Of a stretch of DNA of 64,000 nucleotides, positions 30,215 through 45,734 are shown piece after piece. The stretch covers positions 26,630 through 90,629 of the forward strand of contig JAJZUU010000002.1 of assembly GCA_021848325.1 (NCBI GenBank), given 5' to 3'. The position numbers and the translations under genes are program-made. The DNA is from Pseudomonadota bacterium (GTDB lineage Bacteria; Pseudomonadota; Gammaproteobacteria; Burkholderiales; JAJZUU01). The notes under the pieces were generated by a model. That model had not been told where the DNA came from, ran no database searches, and saw nothing but the letters and a program-made list of their open reading frames with translations. The number at the start of each line of letters is the position of its first letter. The first letter of the stretch is position 1.

Positions 30215-30547
30215 TTAGATACAGCCGGTCGGCTTGGGCAAACCGGCGATTTTGCACGCCTGCTTTGCCGGACCATACGGGAACAGCTCATACAGATACT
30301 TGCTGCTGCCCTTCTCCGGCCCCAACTTCTTGCCGATGGCCTTGGTCAGCACGCGCACCGCGGGAGCGATCTGATAGTCGTTGTAGTACTCGCGCAGGAA
30401 GTTGATCACTTCCCAGTGGTTGTCGCTCAGATCGACCTTCTCTTCGGCCGCGAGGTATTTCGCAACATCCTCGTTCCATTCGCTGAGGTTGATCAGATAT
30501 CCCTCTTCGTCGGTCTCGTAGGTCTTACCGTTCAGTTCAAAACTCAT
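30215..30547 (-). CDS. dsrC: DsrC, bona fide form with both redox-active cysteines
   Basis: C-terminus ...AKQACKIAGLPKPTGCI has CysB-X10-CysA with CysA penultimate. 110 aa. Confidence 0.95.
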   Translation of the reverse strand: MSFELNGKTYETDEEGYLINLSEWNEDVAKYLAAEEKVDLSDNHWEVINFLREYYNDYQIAPAVRVLTKAIGKKLGPEKGSSKYLYELFPYGPAKQACKIAGLPKPTGCI

Positions 30548-32892: not shown

Positions 32893-34176
32893 TCAGGCCG
32901 CGCTCGCTTGCTTTTGCTTGATCTTGGCGACTTCCTCATCCCAGCCGTCCATGCGGACGTACGGGTTGGTCCTGGGGTAGTTGACCATGTTGGGATCGAT
33001 ATCGAGGCCAATCCCCTCCAGGAAGTTGACCAGGCCGATGCGTTCGATCATCTCCCCGGTACGCTCGTGCTCCAGCGCGTTTTCCGCGAAGAAGTCGATC
33101 ATGTTGCCAGCCAACTCCACCAGCGCCTCGAAGTCCTCTTCGGTTTCGAGTTTCATGAACGGAACCACCATGGTGCCCATCAGGTCACCGATCTTCAGGG
33201 TGCGCTTGCCGCCTACCAAAACGCTCACGCCCTTGTCTGTGCCCGTCGCGAGGGCACCGGTCATGACATTGATGCAGTGCATGCAGCGCACGCAGTTGGA
33301 ATTATCGACTTCCACCGAATGGGTGTCGCTCACCGCCACGGCGGAGATGCGCTCGCCCTTGGCCACTTTGGCGCTTTCCTTGAGGGTGATGGCCTTGGTC
33401 GGGCAGCGGCTGATGACGTTGTTCACCAAGTCATCCATGCCGTGCTTGGCATACCATTTCCGGGCCAGACCTTCGTCCACCCGCATGTTGTCGCGCCAGG
33501 TGCCGATCACCGCCATGTCTGCGCGCTGGATGGAATTCACACAGTCGTTGGGGCAGCCGGAAAACTTGAACTTGAATTTATACGGCAGGGCCGGACGGTG
33601 CATATCGTCCAGGAAGTTGTTGACCACCATGCGCAACGCCTTGCCTTCGTCGTAGCAAGACTGTTCGCAACGGGCCGCGCCGACACAGGACATGGAGGTG
33701 CGCACCGCGGGGCCGGCGCCGCCCATGTCGAAGCCCAATTCGTTGAGCTCATCGAAGGCAGGCTGAACGTTGTCGCTGCTGATCCCTTGGAACATGATGT
33801 CGCCGCTCTGGCCGTGGAAAGCGATCAGACCGGAACCGTGCCGTTCCCAGATGTCGCAGAACTTGCGCAGGATGTCCGTGTTGTAGTGCATCCCGGCGGG
33901 CGGCATGATCCGCAAGGTGTGAAACTCGGAGGATTCCGGAAACATGCTGGCCACTTCCGAGAAGCGCGGAATCACGCCGCCGCCGTACCCAAACACGCCA
34001 ACCGTCCCGCCCTTCCAGTAGCCCTTGCGGGTCTGGTAGGAATGCTCAAGCTGGCCGAGCAGATCAACCATCATGTCGTTGTCTTGCGCCAGACGCTTGA
34101 GGCCGGTTACAAAGCTGGGCCACGGACCGCTTTCCAATTGGTCGAGATTGGGGGTCTCGTGCATTTTCTTCGCCAT
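32893..34176 (-). CDS. dsrA: dissimilatory sulfite reductase alpha subunit (oxidative type)
   Basis: MAKKMHETPNLDQLESGPWPSFV...FKFKFSGCPNDC...CVRCMHC. GAGGAG precedes ATG 34176. Confidence 0.95.
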   Translation of the reverse strand: MAKKMHETPNLDQLESGPWPSFVTGLKRLAQDNDMMVDLLGQLEHSYQTRKGYWKGGTVGVFGYGGGVIPRFSEVASMFPESSEFHTLRIMPPAGMHYNTDILRKFCDIWERHGSGLIAFHGQSGDIMFQGISSDNVQPAFDELNELGFDMGGAGPAVRTSMSCVGAARCEQSCYDEGKALRMVVNNFLDDMHRPALPYKFKFKFSGCPNDCVNSIQRADMAVIGTWRDNMRVDEGLARKWYAKHGMDDLVNNVISRCPTKAITLKESAKVAKGERISAVAVSDTHSVEVDNSNCVRCMHCINVMTGALATGTDKGVSVLVGGKRTLKIGDLMGTMVVPFMKLETEEDFEALVELAGNMIDFFAENALEHERTGEMIERIGLVNFLEGIGLDIDPNMVNYPRTNPYVRMDGWDEEVAKIKQKQASAA

Positions 34177-34617
34177 AGGTATCACTCCTCAAGATTTTAA
34201 CAGTTACTCACTCAAGGCCAGCGGAACAATCCGAAGCCTATTGGTTTCACCACCCGGATCACGGAATCGATGCAGCACCGGACGCTCTTCAGCGAAAATT
34301 ATTAACCCGCTACGCCTAACGGCATAGCGGGCTTTGTTCGCAGGACACGCCCAGAATGTCTTCATCCGCAGCAGTTGGCCCAATGTTACAAGGGCGTCGA
34401 AGTGGGCGCTATCCTTCCGGTTGGGTGGTACGATACTACCCACAAGGAGTATATGGCCGTATCCCACTTCGGTAACCGGCATTTCGTCCGCGCTAAGTAT
34501 AATAGTATAGTTTAGGGTGCCGATTCCGCTGTAAGAATGAAGTTTTATTTTAATTGCGTCTTGATCGGCAACCCGGCGATCCCATATAGTTCCCCAGAAA
34601 ACCCATGGAGGCGCAGC

Positions 34618-34839
34618 ATGGAGCAAATCACCAAGCTCGATAAATTCATTGTGCCGTTCGGCGGTCGCGAAATCGAATTGCAGCAGGTCGACTACGCGAC
34701 GGGGGGCATGAGCTTGCTCCGCATCCGCATCCGTGAGCACAAGAGGTTTACCATCTTCGAGCTCGACCCCGATAGCGCCGAACACTGGGGAGATGCGATG
34801 GTGGCGTGGGCGCGGCAACAGAAGGCGTTATCCGCCTGA
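34618..34839 (+). CDS. small hypothetical protein (73 aa), first gene of the unit divergent from dsrA
   Basis: GGAGG lies 6 nt before ATG 34618. MEQITKLDKFIVPFGGREIELQQVDYATGGMSLLRIRIREHKRFTIFELDPDSAEHWGDAMVAWARQQ. No family recognised. Confidence 0.55.
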   Translation: MEQITKLDKFIVPFGGREIELQQVDYATGGMSLLRIRIREHKRFTIFELDPDSAEHWGDAMVAWARQQKALSA

Positions 34840-34860
34840 CCGCCGCAGACTAATGTCTTG

Positions 34861-35496
34861 ATGGAGACAGGTTTGGAAGACACACAGGACAAGATCGAAT
34901 CCTCCGTTGTGGATATCGTGTTCGACATTGAGGGCAAGGCCATCCCGGAAGACAATAGCTCGGCGCTCTGGCGCGAGGTGTTGCGCCATCTGCCCTGGCT
35001 CGAACAGGAGAAACACGCCGGCATCCACCCCCTTCAGGCGGCGCCGTCCGACTATGGTATGCTTCTGCTCACGCGGCGCACCAAGCTGGTGCTGCGGGTG
35101 GCGCAGGCGCACGTGGCGGCGGCGATGGAACTGACCGGCCGCCAATTGGATATCGGGGACAACGTACTTCGGGTGGGCAGCGGGAAGGTGCGTCCGCTGC
35201 CGGTTTTCGGGACGATCTACGCGCATTTTGTGGACATGGGCAGCGCCGACGAGACGCAGTTCGCGCGCCATCTCGCGCGGCGCCTGGAGGAAATGAAGAT
35301 CCAGACCAAGTTCATCTGCGGCAAGCGGCAAGCGCTGCATACGGACCAGGGCGTCGTCTCCGGCTTCAGCCTTATGCTATACGATCTGACGCCCGCACAG
35401 TCCATCCTGCTCCAGGAGATCGGTCTGGGCGCCAATCGCAAACTAGGTTGCGGCATCTTCATCCCCCACAAGTCGATCGCGGCCATCATGGCATGA
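34861..35496 (+). CDS. Cas6/Cmx6-like RAMP-family protein (orphan, no CRISPR context)
   Basis: 212 aa. C-proximal GLGANRKLGCG matches the Cas6 glycine-rich loop GhGxxxxxGhG, followed by IFIPHK. I recall this family being annotated as type I-MYXAN Cas6/Cmx6. I am confident this is a real gene; the family assignment is less sure. Confidence 0.5.
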   Translation: METGLEDTQDKIESSVVDIVFDIEGKAIPEDNSSALWREVLRHLPWLEQEKHAGIHPLQAAPSDYGMLLLTRRTKLVLRVAQAHVAAAMELTGRQLDIGDNVLRVGSGKVRPLPVFGTIYAHFVDMGSADETQFARHLARRLEEMKIQTKFICGKRQALHTDQGVVSGFSLMLYDLTPAQSILLQEIGLGANRKLGCGIFIPHKSIAAIMA

Positions 35497-35585: not shown

Positions 35586-35915
35586 ATGGGATATGTAATT
35601 GGCGGCGTGGAACTGGAGACCGACGGTGACGGCTATCTGCTGGAACCCAACTTCAGCGACGAAGCGGTTGAGGTCATCGCTGCGGCCGAAGGCATCAAAC
35701 TGACCGACGGCCACTGGGAAGTGGTCAATTACATGCGCGACGAGTACAAGGAGCAAGGCCATACGCCCAACTTCCGCAACATGCTCAAGGGCTTCTCGGC
35801 CAGCCATCCCGGCGTCGACAGCAAGTATCTCTATGACCTGTTCCCCACGGGGCCGGCCAAACAGGCCGCCAAGGTGGCCGGCCTGCCGCAGCCCTACGGC
35901 AAGGGCGGCTACTGA
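35586..35915 (+). CDS. DsrC/TusE-family paralog lacking both conserved cysteines
   Basis: Aligns along its length with the DsrC at 30215-30547 (GHWEVVNYMRDEY / NHWEVINFLREYY; YLYDLFPTGPAKQAAKVAGLPQP / YLYELFPYGPAKQACKIAGLPKP). It ends PYGKGGY and contains no Cys at all. AAAGGAGA precedes the ATG. Confidence 0.85.
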   Translation: MGYVIGGVELETDGDGYLLEPNFSDEAVEVIAAAEGIKLTDGHWEVVNYMRDEYKEQGHTPNFRNMLKGFSASHPGVDSKYLYDLFPTGPAKQAAKVAGLPQPYGKGGY

Positions 35916-36028: not shown

Positions 36029-36889
36029 ATGAAGTACACGACTATTGTAGAGCCCCGGGAACTGGCGCGCCATCTCGACGACCCGCTGTGGGTCGTGTTC
36101 GACTGCAGGTTCACCCTCACCGACGCCCAGGCCGGGCGCAACGCCTACCGGCGCGCCCACATTCCGGGTGCGCGCTACGCCCATCTGGACGAAGACCTGG
36201 CCAGTGAGGTGACCGCAAACTCCGGCCGCCACCCCTTGCCCGATCCCGCGGCGCTGGCGGAAAGGCTGGGGCGCTGGGGGGTGGACGAAACGAAGCAGGT
36301 GGTGGTCTACGACGACAGTTTCGGCGCCATGGCAGGACGTATGTGGTGGCTGCTGCGTTGGCTGGGCCACGACGCGGTCGCTTTGCTTGACGGCGGCCTG
36401 CCCAAATGGATGCGGGAGGGCGGCGCCATGAGTGCCGAGCTTCCCGCGATCCTGCCCACGGCCTTCCGGGCGCGCCCGGACGATACCATGTGGGTGGACA
36501 GCGGCCGCGTCGAGCAGGCACTGCAAAACGGCGGCATCATCATAGACGCCCGTGCCGAGGAGCGTTTCGTAGGCGATATCGAACCCCTGGACCGGATCGC
36601 CGGGCATATTCCCGGCGCGGTGAACCTTCCGTTCGAGGACAACCTGAACCTGGGCGGCGGATTCCTGCCGCCGGAGGAACTGCGCGAACTCTATGCGGGG
36701 GCGACGCGCGGGAAAGCGCCCCGCGAAGTCATCCATATGTGCGGCTCCGGAGTGACTGCCTGCCATAACTTGCTGGCCATGGAAATGGCGGGGCTGCGCG
36801 GCGCCAAGCTGTACCCCGGCTCCTGGAGCGAGTGGATCACGGTGGAAACCCGTCCGGTAGCCGTTGGAGAGGAAAAAGCATGCGAATAA
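36029..36889 (+). CDS. tandem-rhodanese sulfurtransferase (SseA / 3-mercaptopyruvate or thiosulfate sulfurtransferase type)
   Basis: Two rhodanese domains. Active-site loop HMCGSGVTA. AHIPGARY in the N-domain. Confidence 0.85.
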   Translation: MKYTTIVEPRELARHLDDPLWVVFDCRFTLTDAQAGRNAYRRAHIPGARYAHLDEDLASEVTANSGRHPLPDPAALAERLGRWGVDETKQVVVYDDSFGAMAGRMWWLLRWLGHDAVALLDGGLPKWMREGGAMSAELPAILPTAFRARPDDTMWVDSGRVEQALQNGGIIIDARAEERFVGDIEPLDRIAGHIPGAVNLPFEDNLNLGGGFLPPEELRELYAGATRGKAPREVIHMCGSGVTACHNLLAMEMAGLRGAKLYPGSWSEWITVETRPVAVGEEKACE

Positions 36890-37452
36890 AGAGCCATTGG
36901 CACAAGGCGGACAAGCAGAAGAGCGTCCAGGAAGTCGCCGGCGCCATGGCGTTCATCATTTGGCGCCTGGCTCAGAATTCGCTCAAACACATGCGCGGCG
37001 ACAAGTTCGAGATCGAGGCCGGACCGCGCTACTTTGCAGTGGTAGCCGAATTCCTGATATTCCTCATCCAGATCGCGGACCGCATCGCCTATGAGCGGCT
37101 GGACGAAACCATGCGCGCCGAATTCACCACCGCCCTCGCGCTGCGGGTCGCCGAAACCCTGGACGAAAATCTGGTGGACTTGGGGGGCGGCGCGGATGGG
37201 CAAAACTACCGCCAGCAGTTCATTTCCCTGCTGAACGAGCGCGCCGCGGACTATGCCAACTTCGCCTATACCGAAGCAGGGCCCGACTACGCCTTCCTGC
37301 GCTACCTGGGCACCTGCGTGATGGAGTTCATGGGGGAACAGGACAAGCCGTGGATCATGGACCAGATCATCGAAATCGAGACCCCGGACGCGGTGGCCAC
37401 GGTCCGGAAGGGCATGCGCGACTTGTTCGAGACACCGCCTGGCGCCCAATAA
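36880..37452 (+). CDS. hypothetical protein (190 aa)
   Basis: GGAGAGGAAAAAGC-ATG. 10-nt overlap with the rhodanese stop. Predicted helical. No family recognised. Confidence 0.6.
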   Translation: MRIKSHWHKADKQKSVQEVAGAMAFIIWRLAQNSLKHMRGDKFEIEAGPRYFAVVAEFLIFLIQIADRIAYERLDETMRAEFTTALALRVAETLDENLVDLGGGADGQNYRQQFISLLNERAADYANFAYTEAGPDYAFLRYLGTCVMEFMGEQDKPWIMDQIIEIETPDAVATVRKGMRDLFETPPGAQ

Positions 37453-37472
37453 CCCATCGAAAGCCCGGAAAT

Positions 37473-38408
37473 ATGACCACCGATGCCAAGGCAGCGCAGA
37501 GCCCTTTCCAACTTGATAACGAGGCCGCTTTCCGCGACTGGCGGGAGCGAAAACTGGCAGACTATCCCACCGGTATCGAAGAGATGATCGTGGAAGTGGA
37601 CGACCCCCGCGCCCTGACGGAACAGGAGCACGAGGCCATCCGCCGCTGTTGCGCCAAGGCCAACATGGCGATCTATGCGAGCCGCTGCGACGGCGATCCG
37701 GACAAGGACATCCCCCGCCTGCTGGCGGCCCAGTTTGGTCTGGTCCATCTGGATTCCAACATGCTGGCGGACGACGACGGCATCACCAGCCTCACCGTTT
37801 CCGGGCAGGGGGAGCGCGCAGACTACATCCCCTACACCAACCGCCCTATCAGGTGGCATACCGATGGCTATTACAATCCCCCGGACCGCCAGATCCGCGG
37901 CATGGTGCTGCACTGCGTCTCCCCGGCCGCGGACGGCGGGGAAAACGCCCTGATGGATCACGAAATGGCCTACCTGCTGATGCGCGATGCCAGCCCCGAT
38001 TGGGTACGGGCGCTGATGGAAACGGACGCCATGACCATCCCGGCACGCGCGGACGAAAACGGCGTGGCCCGCCCGGCGGAAAGCGGCCCGGTGTTTTCCG
38101 TCCATCCCGCCACGGGCGACCTGCACATGCGCTATACCGCCCGTACCCGCAGCATCGTTTGGAAGGACGACGCAGTTATCCGGGAAGCGGCGGCCTTCCT
38201 CCAAACGCTTCTAAACACGCCCTCGCTCTACGTCTACCGGGCCACCCTCGCCCCCGGCATGGGCCTGATTTGCAATAACGTGCTGCACGACCGCACCGGC
38301 TTCAGCGACGATGCGAACCACCGCCGCCTGCTCTATCGGGCGCGCTACTACGACCGCATCATAGGCACCGGCGTGCTCGAGAATGCCATCCCGACGGCCG
38401 GCTCTTGA
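37473..38408 (+). CDS. TauD/TfdA-family Fe(II)/2-oxoglutarate dioxygenase-like protein
   Basis: RWHTDGYY (HxD iron ligands) and distal NNVLHDRTGF His. 311 aa. Confidence 0.7.
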   Translation: MTTDAKAAQSPFQLDNEAAFRDWRERKLADYPTGIEEMIVEVDDPRALTEQEHEAIRRCCAKANMAIYASRCDGDPDKDIPRLLAAQFGLVHLDSNMLADDDGITSLTVSGQGERADYIPYTNRPIRWHTDGYYNPPDRQIRGMVLHCVSPAADGGENALMDHEMAYLLMRDASPDWVRALMETDAMTIPARADENGVARPAESGPVFSVHPATGDLHMRYTARTRSIVWKDDAVIREAAAFLQTLLNTPSLYVYRATLAPGMGLICNNVLHDRTGFSDDANHRRLLYRARYYDRIIGTGVLENAIPTAGS

Positions 38409-41727: not shown

Positions 41728-42156
41728 TCACGCGGCTTGCTTGATGTAGTCCTGCCAGTAGCGCTCCCACTGACCGTTGGCGCGGTTGAGGCGTAGGGCC
41801 AGCATATGTTCAGCGTGCTCCAGGGACCACCAGGCACCGGGGCGCTTCAGCCGCTGTTGGACAACATAGCGATGGGCGCTTTCGATCTCTCCGGAGCCAA
41901 TGGGTAATCCTTGCTCGAGCGCACCTCGATAGTCCAGTTGATGGTGGCGATTGGAGAGATAGCGGTGGCACACCCGCACAGGAGCCTCCTCGTCTGGGAT
42001 GTTGGCAGGCTCCAGGTGGGACGCGAACGAAGCCAACACCGCTTCCAACTCATTGGTCTTAAGCCGTTCCTTCTGTTCGCCCAGCCACCCCTTAGGCTGC
42101 GGCGAACACGTCGCTGCCGCGGCAGCCAAGTACTCGCAAGCATGGTAGAAGTCCAT
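41728..42156 (-). pseudogene. C-terminal remnant of an ISKra4-family transposase
   Basis: ...HACEYL...LPIGSGEIESAHRYVVQQRLKRPGAWWSLEHAEHMLALRLNRANGQWERYW. Only 142 aa remain of an expected ~450. No upstream continuation in any frame. Confidence 0.6.
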
Positions 42157-42368: not shown

Positions 42369-42393
42369 CGCTTTTTCGTTGATTGGAGGCATT

Positions 42394-42672
42394 ATGGAAG
42401 ACTCAATTCGTTGGACGATCAAGGTTTCCAGGGGGACGGATATTTCGCTCCGTTCTTACCTTGCCCAGCACGGCATGAAAAAGGGCGACTTATCGAAATT
42501 CGTCGAGGAAGCGGTACGCTGGCGCGTGCTCGATAAGACTGTAGCGGAAGTTCGGGAGCGCAATGCCAACGTTCCGGATGAAGAGATCGAGGCTGCAATC
42601 GACGAGGCGCTTGCCGCTGTAAGGGCAGAACGGCCAGCAGAAATGCCCGCAAAACGGCTACGCAAAAAATAG
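42394..42672 (+). CDS. ribbon-helix-helix antitoxin (VapB-like)
   Basis: GGAGG precedes ATG 42394. MEDSIRWTIKVSRGTDISLRSYLAQHGMKKGDLSKFVEEAVRW is an RHH beta-strand plus two helices. A PIN-type N-terminus follows 6 nt later. Confidence 0.6.
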   Translation: MEDSIRWTIKVSRGTDISLRSYLAQHGMKKGDLSKFVEEAVRWRVLDKTVAEVRERNANVPDEEIEAAIDEALAAVRAERPAEMPAKRLRKK

Positions 42673-42795: not shown

Positions 42796-42870
42796 TGGTG
42801 GGCGGTGCAAGGTTCGAACTTGCGACCCCTGCCGTGTGAAGGCAGTGCTCTACCACTGAGCTAACCGCCC
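42796..42870 (-). tRNA. tRNA-Val (anticodon CAC)
   Basis: GGGCGGTTAGCTCAGTGGTAGAGCACTGCCTTCACACGGCAGGGGTCGCAAGTTCGAACCTTGCACCGCCCACCA. Perfect 7-bp acceptor stem, TTCGAAC T-loop, anticodon loop TTCACAC. Confidence 0.9.
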
Positions 42871-43029
42871 GAAAGGGAGGCTGCAATTAAACCATACTAT
42901 GGTTCCCGCGGTCAATTTCGGCCAGAGCGGCGCGCGCGGGATAGCCGCCGGGCGCGCACCTGCTGGATGCCTGTCGCGAGGGGGCGAGTTGGCGTAAAAT
43001 GGCGCCTTCCCTTCAAGCGAAGCAAAGAA

Positions 43030-44421
43030 ATGATCCGTACCCGTTTTGCCCCCAGCCCGACCGGCTATCTGCACATCGGAGGCGCACGCACCGCCCTTTT
43101 TTCCTGGGCCTTCGCCCGCCAGAACGGGGGGGTCTTCGTGCTGCGCATCGAGGACACCGATCTGGAGCGCTCGACCCCGGAGTCGGTGCAGGCCATTCTC
43201 GACAGCATGGACTGGCTCGGGCTCGATTACGACGAGGGGCCGTTTTACCAGATGCAGCGCATGGATCGCTACCGCGAGGTGATCCGGCAGTTGCTGGACG
43301 AGGGCAAGGCCTATTATTGCTACGCCAGCAAGGAGGAACTGGATGCCCTGCGCGAAGAACAGCGTGCCAGAGGTCTGAAACCCCGCTACGACGGGCGCTG
43401 GCGTGACTCCAAGGCGACCCCGCCCGCGGGCGTGAAGCCGGTGGTGCGTTTCAAGAACCCCCTGGACGGAACGGTGCTGATCGACGACCTGATCAAGGGC
43501 CGGGTAGTGGTGCAAAACGGCGAACTGGACGACCTGATCATCGCCCGCGCGGACGGGACGCCCACCTACAATTTCTGCGTGGTGGTGGACGACTGGGACA
43601 TGAAGATCACCCATGTCATTCGGGGCGACGACCACCTCAACAACACCCCGCGCCAGATCAATATTCTGAAGGCGCTGGGGGCGCCCATCCCCCAGTACGC
43701 CCACGTACCCATGATCCTCGGCCACGACGGGGAACGGCTTTCCAAACGCCATGGCGCGGTGAGCGTGCTGCAGTACCGGGACGACGGCTACCTGCCGCAA
43801 GCGTTGCTCAACTACCTGGCGCGCCTGGGCTGGGCCCACGGCGACGAAGAGGTGTTCGATCTGCGGCAATTCGTGGAGTGGTTCAACTGGAACGGGGTCA
43901 GCAAGTCCGCGGCCAAGTTCAACCCGGAGAAGCTGGTTTGGCTGAATCAGCAATACCTCAAGGCAGCGGACGATCAACATCTTGCCGAACTGACAAGGCA
44001 TTTCCTGGCGGCGGACTGCTGCGACTGGGACCGCGGGCCTGACTTGAAGAGGGTTGTGGCCCTGCTGAAGGAGCGCGTCACCACCCTCGAGGAACTGGCG
44101 GACGCGGCCGTGTATTTCTATCGCCCCCTCGATCCGCACGAGGATATCAAGCAGCAATACTTCACCCCGGAGGTCAAGCCCGCCCTCTCGGAGGCGGCGC
44201 AGAGGCTGCTGGAAGTGGAATGGGACAGGCACGAGATCAGCCAGGCGCTCAAGGCGGTGGCGGCGGCGCACAAGCTCAAGCTGGGCCAGGTGGCGATGCC
44301 GTTGCGGGTAATGATCACAGGGGAGACGCAAACCCCGCCCATCGATGCCACGATCGAGTTGATCGGCCGAGAGGAGGTGCTGCGCAGGATGCGGCATCAC
44401 CTGTCCCACTTCCCGGGCTAG
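43030..44421 (+). CDS. gltX: glutamate--tRNA ligase
   Basis: [24 protein letters not shown] (HIGH motif). RLSKRHG (KMSKS-like). Trimmed from track start 42967. Confidence 0.95.
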
Positions 44422-44439
44422 AATTTTGCCGCGGCGTTC

Positions 44440-44468
44440 TTTACAAGCGCCGTAGCGGTCAGTATAAT
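44440..44468 (+). promoter_or_regulatory. sigma70-type promoter for tRNA-Ala
   Basis: TTTACA -17 nt- TATAAT. The -10 box ends 12 nt before the tRNA 5' end. Confidence 0.55.
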
Positions 44469-44480
44469 TTGCTGCTTTTC

Positions 44481-44556
<76 letters not shown>

Positions 44557-44591
44557 AATTCTTCGCGGCCAGACCCGGGACGTAAGACGAG

Positions 44592-44783
44592 ATGCATCGC
44601 ATAGGCGTCGTTTTTGTGTGGGTCGGCATCATCAGTTCAGCGATCGGTCTGGTGGTCGGGTTCGCTGATCTGTCCGGCGGCGATGGCGACAAGATCGGGT
44701 TTTGGCTGAACTTGGTTCCGGTGGGATTTGTGTTCTTGCTGATGGGCACGGCAATGTCCCAACTGTCCAGCAGGAAGGACTGA
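44592..44783 (+). CDS. possible small two-helix membrane protein (63 aa)
   Basis: MHRIGVVFVWVGIISSAIGLVVGF...LNLVPVGFVFLLMGTAM gives two hydrophobic spans. Weak SD. Sits between tRNA genes. Support comes only from the ORF and its hydrophobicity. Confidence 0.35.
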   Translation: MHRIGVVFVWVGIISSAIGLVVGFADLSGGDGDKIGFWLNLVPVGFVFLLMGTAMSQLSSRKD

Positions 44784-44919
44784 GAGGTTGTGAAGAAACC
44801 GTCGCGAGCGGCCGGAGTGCGAGGCGCGAACGATGCGAACGACGAGACCTATCCAACGGATAGGCGAGGAGTGAGCAACGAAGCAATCCGGTCGCGCAGC
44901 AGGTTTATTCACAACCTCT
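44783..44919. repeat. 137-bp inverted-repeat / long-hairpin element
   Basis: agaggttgtgaagaaacc (44783-44800) vs ggtttattcacaacctct (44902-44919), 17/18 complementary. Central 7-bp hairpin cctatcc-aac-ggatagg (44848-44864). Starts at the TGA of the small ORF. Confidence 0.5.
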
Positions 44920-44921
44920 GA

Positions 44922-44950
44922 TTGCAGGTTTGGCCCACGGCCTATATAAT
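44922..44950 (+). promoter_or_regulatory. candidate sigma70 promoter upstream of tRNA-Glu
   Basis: TTGCAG -17 nt- TATAAT. It lies 69 nt before the tRNA, so the assignment is tentative. Confidence 0.35.
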
Positions 44951-45018
44951 AGCGGGCTTTTGGTTGCGGCATAATACGGCCTCCGGGCGGTGTTGGCGCA
45001 CAGAGTAAAGAAGATTAG

Positions 45019-45094
45019 GTCCCCATCGTCTAGAGGCCTAGGACATCGCCCTTTCACGGCGGTAACAGGGGTTCGAATCCCCTTGGGGACGCCA
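45019..45094 (+). tRNA. tRNA-Glu (anticodon TTC)
   Basis: GTCCCCATCGTCTAGAGGCCTAGGACATCGCCCTTTCACGGCGGTAACAGGGGTTCGAATCCCCTTGGGGACGCCA. Near-identical to my memory of E. coli tRNA-Glu. Confidence 0.95.
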
Positions 45095-45104
45095 AATAAA
45101 TCGA

Positions 45105-45138
45105 GGGGTTGTGAGAACATCACAATCCCTTTTTCTTT
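45105..45138 (+). terminator. intrinsic terminator after tRNA-Glu
   Basis: ggggttgtga-gaaca-tcacaatccc (one G:U pair), followed by tttttcttt. Confidence 0.6.
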
Positions 45139-45312
45139 CCGTAACTCGCGCCTTGGGCATCGGACTGTCGGCACGTTAGCCGTCGCTCGCGCGACCGCCC
45201 TGTGGAACTCACGGTGCGAGATTGGCGCACCAAAACCCATTCCCGGGTTTTCAGGGTCAGATTAATCCGCCGTTGTCCACTCAGACGGCCAAACATGCGA
45301 GGCCATCAATCA

Positions 45313-45576
45313 ATGCAGATTTTTGTGGGTAACCTAGCGCCAGACGTCGAAGAATCCGACCTGCTGGCGTTGTTTCAGGCGTTCGGGCAAGTAAAGTCGG
45401 TGCAGATCGCGAGAGAGTTGTTCAGCGGTACGTCGAAGGGCTTCGGCTTTGTCGAGATGCCCGGCAAGGCGCACTCCATGGCGGCGATTTCCGGGTTGAA
45501 CGGAAAGGATCTTAAAGGAAAGCCGCTCAAGGTGAACGAATCCCGGCCCAAAACTTTTGTCAGGCGCCGGAGGTAA
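45313..45576 (+). CDS. RRM-type (RNP-1) glycine-free small RNA-binding protein
   Basis: MQIFVGNL (RNP-2) and KGFGFVEM (RNP-1). 87 aa with a basic tail. Confidence 0.85.
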   Translation: MQIFVGNLAPDVEESDLLALFQAFGQVKSVQIARELFSGTSKGFGFVEMPGKAHSMAAISGLNGKDLKGKPLKVNESRPKTFVRRRR

Positions 45577-45649
45577 CCCGAGCGCGACCTGACCCTAACC
45601 CACGGCAACCGTGAGTAGGGGTGGATCGAAAATCTCTAAGTCATTCCTC

Positions 45650-45734
45650 GCGGATATGGTGGAATTGGTAGACACGCTGTCTTGAGGGGGCAGTGCCGAA
45701 AGGCGTGTGAGTTCGAGTCTCACTATCCGCACCA
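45650..45734 (+). tRNA. tRNA-Leu (anticodon GAG), long variable arm
   Basis: GCGGATATGGTGGAATTGGTAGACACGCTGTCTTGAGGGGGCAGTGCCGAAAGGCGTGTGAGTTCGAGTCTCACTATCCGCACCA. Acceptor GCGGATA/TATCCGC. Anticodon loop TTGAGGG. Confidence 0.9.

Follow-up and report, generated by a model that had tools for sequence, protein, structure and literature searches.

What controls the expression of a reverse-type dsr cluster, and do the stable hairpin and the stand-alone cas6-type gene that lie beside its dsrA take part in that control? Almost nothing is known of how chemolithotrophic sulfur oxidisers regulate the reverse-Dsr pathway. The question is raised here by a stretch of 64 kilobases (kb) from a Pseudomonadota bacterium of the Burkholderiales (contig JAJZUU010000002.1 of assembly GCA_021848325.1), referred to below as the window. 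Within it, a spacer of 441 base pairs (bp; 34177-34617) separates dsrA, on the minus strand, from a divergent plus-strand operon that encodes a small protein of family DUF6967, a Cas6/Cmx6 homologue, a DsrC-like protein and a tandem rhodanese. An earlier annotation made from the letters of the window (the original prediction) had described this spacer as a divergent control region carrying a terminator-like hairpin in the dsrA leader (hairpin 1), a second hairpin and a tandem AGTATA repeat. Comparison with related loci leads us to read the spacer, with a probability of about one half, as a divergent promoter region with operator boxes and a species-specific dsrA leader hairpin, the latter likely a weak attenuator or a stabilising or docking stem-loop. 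For the regulation of the reverse-Dsr pathway this provides a concrete map, made of two promoters, a box array and a leader hairpin.

Conserved boxes between two probable, outward-facing -10 elements

Relatives of the locus were collected in two scans. A profile scan with the Cas6 homologue provided 80 genome loci (L001-L080), taken from 579 tblastn-confirmed stretches and belonging to Sulfuricella, Sulfurimicrobium, Thiobacillus, Sulfuriferula, Hydrogenophilales and unclassified Betaproteobacteria, and a metagenome scan based on DsrA added a further 80 loci, the nearest of them at 83% DsrA identity. Sequences closer than this were contigs of the same species only, about 99.6-99.8% identical and derived from some ten samples. 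The gene order, with dsrBA on one side and the divergent DUF6967-Cas6-DsrC-like-rhodanese genes on the other, recurs in almost every one of the 80 genome loci and in many metagenome loci; of the 80 loci added by the DsrA-based scan, about half carry the divergent unit.

Upstream of dsrA, an iterated nucleotide profile detected a core of about 110 nucleotides (nt) in 86 of 118 Cas6-bearing regions, but in only 2 of the 34 in which neither gene was visible upstream (L118 and L161, both with short upstream stretches of contig). Read in the sense of dsrA, this core comprises a G-rich box, TAYYCC-N4-GGGTA, YACCC, four or five free positions, GAATGATRG, a further 20-21 nt and the hexamer TAnnAT. In the window, the box array occupies 34423-34467 on the minus strand and is made up of the G-box GTGGGATACGG (34467-34457), TACTCC (34451-34446), GGGTAGTAT (34441-34433) and CCACCC (34428-34423); it is followed on the same strand by GGAAGGATAG (34418-34409), the window's version of GAATGATRG, which overlaps the -35 region. 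The array does not depend on the presence of Cas6, as two variant loci that lack this gene (L182 and L183) still keep it whole, together with GAATGATGG-N20-TAGCAT, upstream of dsrA.

The terminal hexamer follows GAATGATRG after 20-21 nt in 63-65 of 67 unique related spacers, with T1, A2, A5 and T6 fixed and positions 3 and 4 free, which is the pattern of variation expected of a -10 element. Its counterpart in the window, TAACAT (34388-34383, minus strand), is thus the probable -10 element of dsrA, from which we infer a transcription start near 34376. At the 16-18 nt expected of a -35 element, only a weak TRGnnA would be placed (17-18 nt), since GAATGATRG ends 20-21 nt before the hexamer, and a promoter scan did not call the site; the same scan found no promoter-like site between hairpin 1 and dsrA. 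On the plus strand, the original prediction had singled out a TATAAT within aAGTATAatAGTATAg (34495-34510), and this proposal is strengthened by the finding of TATAAT-like hexamers at the same place and in the same orientation in 58 of the 67 related spacers, so that TATAAT at 34498-34503 is the probable -10 element of the DUF6967-cas6-dsrC-like-rhodanese operon. The tandem AGTATA repeat suggested as an operator at this place is present, but nothing supports it beyond the -10 box itself. An alternative promoter-like sequence, TTGATC-18-TATAGT (34561-34590, plus strand), is located just before DUF6967 and is a consensus match only.

As these opposite TATAAT-like hexamers flank the far side of the array, the boxes lie between two conserved -10 elements that face outward, in agreement with the proposed divergent control region. 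Two simpler statements of the original prediction also proved correct: the GC content of the spacer (0.48-0.55) is lower than that of its flanks (0.58-0.66), and no minus-strand gene lies upstream of dsrA, the neighbour being DUF6967 on the plus strand. A mechanical open reading frame (ORF) of 204 codons on the minus strand (34818-34204), which spans the whole spacer and runs antisense to DUF6967, is probably spurious.

The second predicted hairpin (34423-34441) falls inside the box array. It exists, being made of 8 pairs on the plus strand (one of them G.U) and containing an A.C mismatch on the minus strand, but it gives no signal of RNA structure (in a 71-nt context, z = +0.13 for the minus and -1.55 for the plus strand) and is better described as part of an array that is conserved in sequence. 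Across 19 sequences of the Thiobacillus type the boxes do not change at all and the stretches between them vary freely, with a covariation term of -0.14 and a single two-sided change. A single long RNA hairpin, as obtained when Thiobacillus sequences are folded one at a time, was ruled out by this alignment, in which the stretches between the boxes are uncompensated. To judge from these patterns of conservation, the box array is most likely promoter and operator DNA. The plus-strand promoter would then drive the DUF6967-cas6/cmx6-dsrC-like-rhodanese operon, the minus-strand promoter, with GGAAGGATAG at a fixed distance before its -10 element, would drive dsrA, and the boxes between them would serve as operator DNA for a regulator supplied by the divergent operon, the best candidates being the cysteine-less DsrC-like protein or DUF6967.

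A stable hairpin restricted to one species

Hairpin 1 had been predicted as an 11-bp stem (cccgctatgcc-gtta-ggcgtagcggg, 34306-34331 on the minus strand) about 130 nt upstream of dsrA. Both details were verified, the 3' end of the stem being 128 nt upstream of the ATG, and an additional A-U and G.U pair lengthen the stem to 13 bp, with two G.U pairs in all, a GUUA loop and a folding free energy of about -25 kcal/mol (34304-34333, minus strand); AAUAAUUUUC follows. A 56-nt context folds at -29.1 kcal/mol on the minus strand (z = -6.23, matched by none of 200 shuffles) and at -22.5 kcal/mol on the plus strand (z = -3.47), where the hairpin is weaker because the two G.U pairs turn into A.C mismatches. 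This preference for the dsrA-sense strand argues for an element that acts as RNA. Since the conserved TAACAT is upstream of it, hairpin 1 is probably contained in the 5' untranslated region (UTR) of dsrA, which would be about 200 nt long if transcription starts near 34376 and would hold the hairpin at about +44 to +73. When the spacer is shuffled by mononucleotides, stems of at least 11 bp, with G.U pairs allowed, arise about 5% of the time, and the window contains only about 26 of them, mostly rich in G.U and within genes. Hairpins comparable to hairpin 1, with few G.U pairs and outside genes, amount to a handful in the window, and those with a U-tail follow transfer RNA (tRNA) genes. Around hairpin 1 and its tail, GCGAA on the 5' side is pairable with UUCGC on the 3' side of the U-rich tail (34290-34345, minus strand), a predicted outer helix of 5 bp.

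In the multiple alignment, hairpin 1 lies within an insertion of about 30 nt that is found only in the window, downstream of the conserved core and in the variable part of the leader. Neither the hairpin nor anything alignable with it was detected in any spacer outside the species. The closest relatives outside the species have spacers of about 220 nt, too short to hold it, and another relative (P0002, from SRR26421363), whose Cas6 is 73% identical, has a spacer of 602 nt. The stem is therefore not conserved across related dsr loci, and the covariation test proposed with the original prediction is not applicable to it. Among the contigs of the same species the stem is identical except for one T>C change at 34305 (L170), which converts the outer G.U into a G-C pair; this identity is weak evidence, because the contigs are so similar overall. 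Two other origins for the hairpin were considered and rejected. It is not a high-copy repeat, being present once in the 64 kb, and it is probably not a compensatorily diverged form of the conserved TACCCC/GGGGTA hairpin, since the positions differ, the likeness is anecdotal and a strict enumeration of units was uninformative; some Sulfuricella loci carry TACTGCC-AAT-GGCGTA at the second box pair.

Leaders in other clades have hairpins of their own, non-homologous to hairpin 1 and accompanied by U-rich tracts and some compensatory changes, which indicates that structured dsrA leaders are common in the group, though their sequences differ. The Sulfuricella-type hairpin shows a few compensatory pairs and is followed by a run of eight U just before the Shine-Dalgarno sequence. 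The last 70 nt or so of these leaders (L004-L020, L056 and L074) form a conserved element and read GAGAUGGCUGG, the hairpin, and then GGACGUUAC-U8-GGAG, and the changes in the inner stem are GCCGG/CCGGC, GCCAG/CUGGC and GCUGAUUUA/UAAAUCAGC. The spacer of L001, of 747 nt, is enlarged by duplicated segments that carry perfect palindromes of 15-17 bp (TAGCAGCCTGTCGGACTTAACAGTCCGACAGGCTGCTA and TAGGAGTTTGTCGGGGCTAAGTCCGACAAACTCCTA); these have the look of miniature repeat elements and occupy the same relative insertion place as hairpin 1.

The architecture of an intrinsic terminator, attributed to hairpin 1 by the original prediction, is borderline here. The stem is stable and GC-rich, and with our own implementation of a d'Aubenton-Carafa-type score the 11-bp stem with the tail UUAAUAAUUUU reaches +6.2, and two of the tRNA terminators in the window reach +6.5. 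On the other hand, the U-rich tail AAUAAUUUUCGC (34292-34303, minus strand) is interrupted (3' of the stem it reads UUAAUAAUUUUC), and if the 13-bp stem is used, the score falls to -24.6. Hairpin 1 is thus a plausible but weak intrinsic terminator. The suggestion that it might be a leader attenuator or a protein-binding stem-loop fares similarly, as its probable location in the leader and its score as a weak terminator are compatible with it, but no antiterminator pairing was found. Attenuation through a leader peptide was considered for a mechanical upstream ORF of 53 codons (34365-34204), which makes up the end of the 204-codon frame, starts at the ATG at 34365, crosses hairpin 1 and ends 28 nt before dsrA, and was rejected, as this frame lacks a ribosome-binding site and gives no coding signal; of three within-species variants located in it, two are non-synonymous and one is synonymous.

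Likeness of hairpin 1 to a CRISPR repeat

The original prediction had also remarked that stem-loops of this size are of the kind recognised by Cas6-family proteins, and a gene for such a protein lies 530 bp from hairpin 1. The assignment of its product to Cas6/Cmx6 is well above the cutoffs of two profiles, PF09559 (E = 1.9e-58, 198 bits against 26.7) and TIGR02807 (153 bits against 98.85). Its identity to Cmx6 proteins linked to clustered regularly interspaced short palindromic repeats (CRISPR) is 23-27%, and it shares with them the C-terminal G-rich RNA-binding loop GxGxxRxLGCGxF, which in the form GLGxxRxLGCGIF does not vary from the dsr-linked to the CRISPR-linked proteins. Where the dsr-linked group has Y121 and H123, the two CRISPR-linked sequences have K and R. 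No CRISPR array was found in the window, and no other cas gene in the window or in any dsr locus. The stand-alone gene keeps a constant place beside dsrAB in the sulfur-oxidising Betaproteobacteria (loci L001-L080 and many among L083-L183), and its association with the dsr operon, DUF6967 and a cysteine-less DsrC extends over genomes of Thiobacillus, Sulfuricella, Sulfuriferula and the Hydrogenophilales type. Searches of the literature for Cmx6, for DUF6967 and for Cas6 together with dsr returned nothing relevant, and this conserved set is one for which no description was found in the searchable literature.

The apical 14 nt of hairpin 1, AUGCCGUUAGGCGU (34312-34325, minus strand), are equal to the hairpin of the type I-MYXAN repeats of Nostoc MS1 and Leptospira, including a U.G wobble and the GUUA loop, and other repeats of this type have the same stem and differ in the loop alone; as a group they read ...GAUGCC-GUAA/AUUA/GUUA-GGCGUU-GAKCAC. 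A search of the whole window with Rfam 15 yielded four tRNAs, no family of cis-regulatory RNA, and one sub-threshold match in this region, of CRISPR-DR33 (RF01343) to hairpin 1 in the sense of dsrA (16 bits, E = 3.7, gathering threshold 39 bits). Arrays of the DR33 type occur in 3 of 6 plasmids bearing a cmx6 homologue, and in the two that were inspected, from Synechocystis 6714 and Cylindrospermopsis, they adjoin genuine cas6/cmx6 genes, each part of a complete type I-MYXAN system. With a covariance model of our own, R1, built from eight real I-MYXAN repeats, the best match in the whole window is 34325-34312 (15.8 bits, E = 0.18), aligned to positions 16-29 of the 36 of the repeat, and scaled to the 441-bp spacer such a match has a chance of about 1e-3. 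Chance matches reach 17.8 bits in 1.5 megabases (Mb), control sequence of 2.4 Mb contains the pattern ATGCC-N4-GGCGT only about five times, and a search of 81 other loci with the repeat model gave no match in a spacer. The remark on Cas6 substrates therefore gains an exact counterpart for the apex of the hairpin, but not for its flanks, and the score is far below the Rfam threshold.

As judged from position (about 1e-3), the match between the apex of hairpin 1 and a cognate Cas6 substrate is suggestive. It would be consistent with a Cas6/Cmx6 protein that was domesticated outside CRISPR, became fixed in the reverse-Dsr locus and acts on a repeat-like hairpin in the dsrA 5'-UTR, a scenario that we regard as unlikely; the coupling of dsr operon expression to an RNA-processing or RNA-binding step, which it would entail, is accordingly put forward only tentatively. 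In a broader version, the dsr-linked Cas6 family may recognise dsr leader hairpins in general, and this species may carry the form nearest to the ancestral CRISPR repeat. Should hairpin 1 truly be a Cas6 target, it would provide a plain example of a CRISPR nuclease taken over to regulate a central operon of energy metabolism; if not, hairpin 1 would be an ordinary leader element specific to its lineage.

Weighing of the explanations

The preferred reading of hairpin 1 is that of a cis-acting RNA element acquired in this lineage only, most likely a weak terminator (attenuator) that would reduce read-through into dsrA, with a stem-loop that stabilises the transcript or docks a protein as the alternative. 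Several observations weigh against this reading and the promoter model that surrounds it. The U-tract after the hairpin is interrupted and the score with the 13-bp stem is negative, the folds contain no antiterminator pairing and inspection by eye revealed no upstream complement to the 5' arm, a conserved leader peptide was not found, and no classical DNA-binding regulator is encoded nearby. Moreover, because no relative has hairpin 1, the hairpin may be a neutral insertion, for instance what is left of a mobile or repetitive palindromic element, whose stability and resemblance to terminators and CRISPR repeats would be incidental. The confinement of the hairpin to an insertion seen only in the window, within the variable part of the leader, fits such an origin, as do the unrelated palindromes that are repeated in the L001 spacer at the same relative place; we consider it improbable nonetheless, since a single copy in 64 kb is not what a high-copy repeat would leave, the strand asymmetry favours the messenger RNA (mRNA) strand and, as weaker evidence given the overall identity of the contigs, the only change in the stem among some ten samples strengthens a pair. 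It is also doubtful that hairpin 1 is a solitary CRISPR-repeat-like hairpin bound, and perhaps cut at its 3' base, by the neighbouring Cas6/Cmx6. Here the identity of AUGCCGUUAGGCGU to natural repeats that adjoin genuine cas6/cmx6 genes, the position of the top R1 match, the rarity of the core pattern, the retained RNA-binding loop and the location of the hairpin on the strand where the repeat hairpin is stable all speak in favour, but the Rfam score is 16 bits against 39, the hairpin core alone matches and the flanks (AACCUUUG and UGAGCAC) are absent, chance matches score as high, the protein is only distantly related to CRISPR-linked Cmx6, and the 6-bp stem of the repeat is buried in a stem of 13 bp. 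In addition, more than 100 other dsr-cas6 loci all lack such a hairpin, yet every one of them has conserved the protein. Post-transcriptional control of dsr mRNA by processing, stabilisation or a roadblock, as this explanation would imply, seems to us similarly hard to favour.

A further alternative concerns the core itself, which, with the second hairpin included, might be a transcribed riboswitch-like leader for which the downstream hairpins, hairpin 1 among them, serve as expression platforms. Such elements are usually laid out in this way, with hairpins that vary by lineage and U-rich tracts behind a conserved block (here of about 110 nt), and the core folds better on the dsrA-sense strand in 42 of 64 cases from several clades, by a mean of -2.7 kcal/mol. 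A promoter-like site on the minus strand lies upstream of the boxes (34523-34496, with the -10 hexamer TATACT at 34501-34496), and if transcription starts there, the box array itself would be RNA, contrary to our model. Also at odds with our model is a hairpin of 4-5 bp, UGAUG-CGGC-CAUCA, between GAATGATGG and TACGAT in Thiobacillus-type loci (for example L065), a place that would be the spacer of the promoter; its variants UGACG/CGUCA and UGGCG/CGCCA show weak covariation and many G.U pairs: it fits RNA better than DNA, and a DNA-only reading leaves it unexplained. Against a riboswitch-like leader, no Rfam family matches the core, the boxes are conserved by sequence and not by pairing, the core of the window is without a folding signal, the antisense strand folds better in Hydrogenophilales-type loci, and the variation of TAnnAT is exactly that of a -10 element. 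Because folding and the Thiobacillus covariation point the other way, we keep the transcribed-RNA explanation as a minor rival of quite low probability, and retain promoter and operator DNA as the preferred reading of the boxes.

Genes of the dsr cluster and of the divergent operon

On the minus strand, dsrA (32893-34176; TIGR02064, 540 bits) is the first gene of a reverse-type dsrABEFHCMKLJOP cluster and is preceded by the Shine-Dalgarno sequence GAGGAG (34185-34190), its ATG being at 34176. It is followed by dsrB (32835-31765) and, on the same strand, by dsrEFHC, dsrMK, dsrL and dsrJOP, which were assigned from their translations only and had no individual profile test.

On the plus strand, DUF6967 (34618-34839; PF22295, E = 1.5e-31) encodes a protein of 73 amino acids (aa). 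Its AlphaFold2 model (predicted local distance difference test score of 92) has four strands and a C-terminal helix (ββββα), and its best matches by template modelling score are PUR repeats, which bind purine-rich single-stranded nucleic acid; these matches are weak, with TMq 0.64-0.69, a probability of up to 0.98 and Foldseek E of 0.2-0.5. The Cas6/Cmx6 homologue (34858-35496) comes next, and then a DsrC/TusE-like paralogue (35586-35915; PF04358) that lacks both C-terminal cysteines: it ends in ...LPQPYGKGGY, and the dsrC of the cluster (30215-30547) in ...CKIAGLPKPTGCI. Without the two cysteines the paralogue cannot carry a persulfide, which makes it a candidate regulator. The divergent operon may therefore encode up to three nucleic-acid-binding proteins, the DsrC-like one included. 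The tandem rhodanese (36029-36889) is the fourth gene diverging from dsrA. In the two variant loci without Cas6 (L182, 697-1830, and L183, 707-1844), DUF6967 is directly followed by the DsrC-like gene and TusA.

Beyond the rhodanese, a plus-strand ORF (36880-37452) has no Pfam or NCBIfam match; it would encode 206 aa if started from the GTG at 36832, it is called as 190 aa in L081 and L082, and a 190-aa gene is likewise called in contigs of the same species and of some relatives (L178 and L182). A TauD-family dioxygenase (37350-38408, plus strand) is likewise 3' of the rhodanese. Further along, a short ORF that by eye resembles the C-terminal part of a transposase (41728-42156) and a small ORF with the look of an antitoxin (42379-42672, also by eye) adjoin a cluster of four tRNAs (42799-45731) with clean terminator hairpins.

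Comparison with known systems

Hairpin 1 shares with type I-MYXAN repeats (RF01343) an identical 14-nt core, its orientation on the stable strand and a nearby gene of the Cas6/Cmx6 family, but differs from them in being single copy, with no spacers or array, without the flanks, with a 13-bp stem and with a score below threshold. With the intrinsic terminators and attenuators of leaders it has in common a GC-rich stem-loop and a U-rich stretch between the promoter and the first gene of an operon; unlike in those, its U-tract is interrupted, its occurrence is restricted to one species, and no antiterminator, leader peptide or known regulator was found with it.

The spacer as a whole is comparable with divergent promoter pairs that share operators, in that two outward -10 elements about 115 bp apart enclose conserved inverted-repeat boxes, whose distances to the dsrA -10 are fixed. 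It departs from divergent regulator-target pairs in having no classical transcription factor, the candidates being instead the DsrC-like protein, DUF6967 with its PUR-repeat-like fold and the Cas6 homologue. DsrC carries a helix-turn-helix-like motif, and in Allochromatium it binds DNA of the dsr promoter. Allochromatium vinosum is not known to have a divergent DUF6967-Cas6 unit; its DsrC was reportedly found by Grimm and colleagues (2010) to bind DNA upstream of dsrA. As far as the dsr promoter of this organism is a guide, the two systems are alike in having a regulated reverse-Dsr promoter upstream of dsrA and a protein of the DsrC family as a possible DNA binder.

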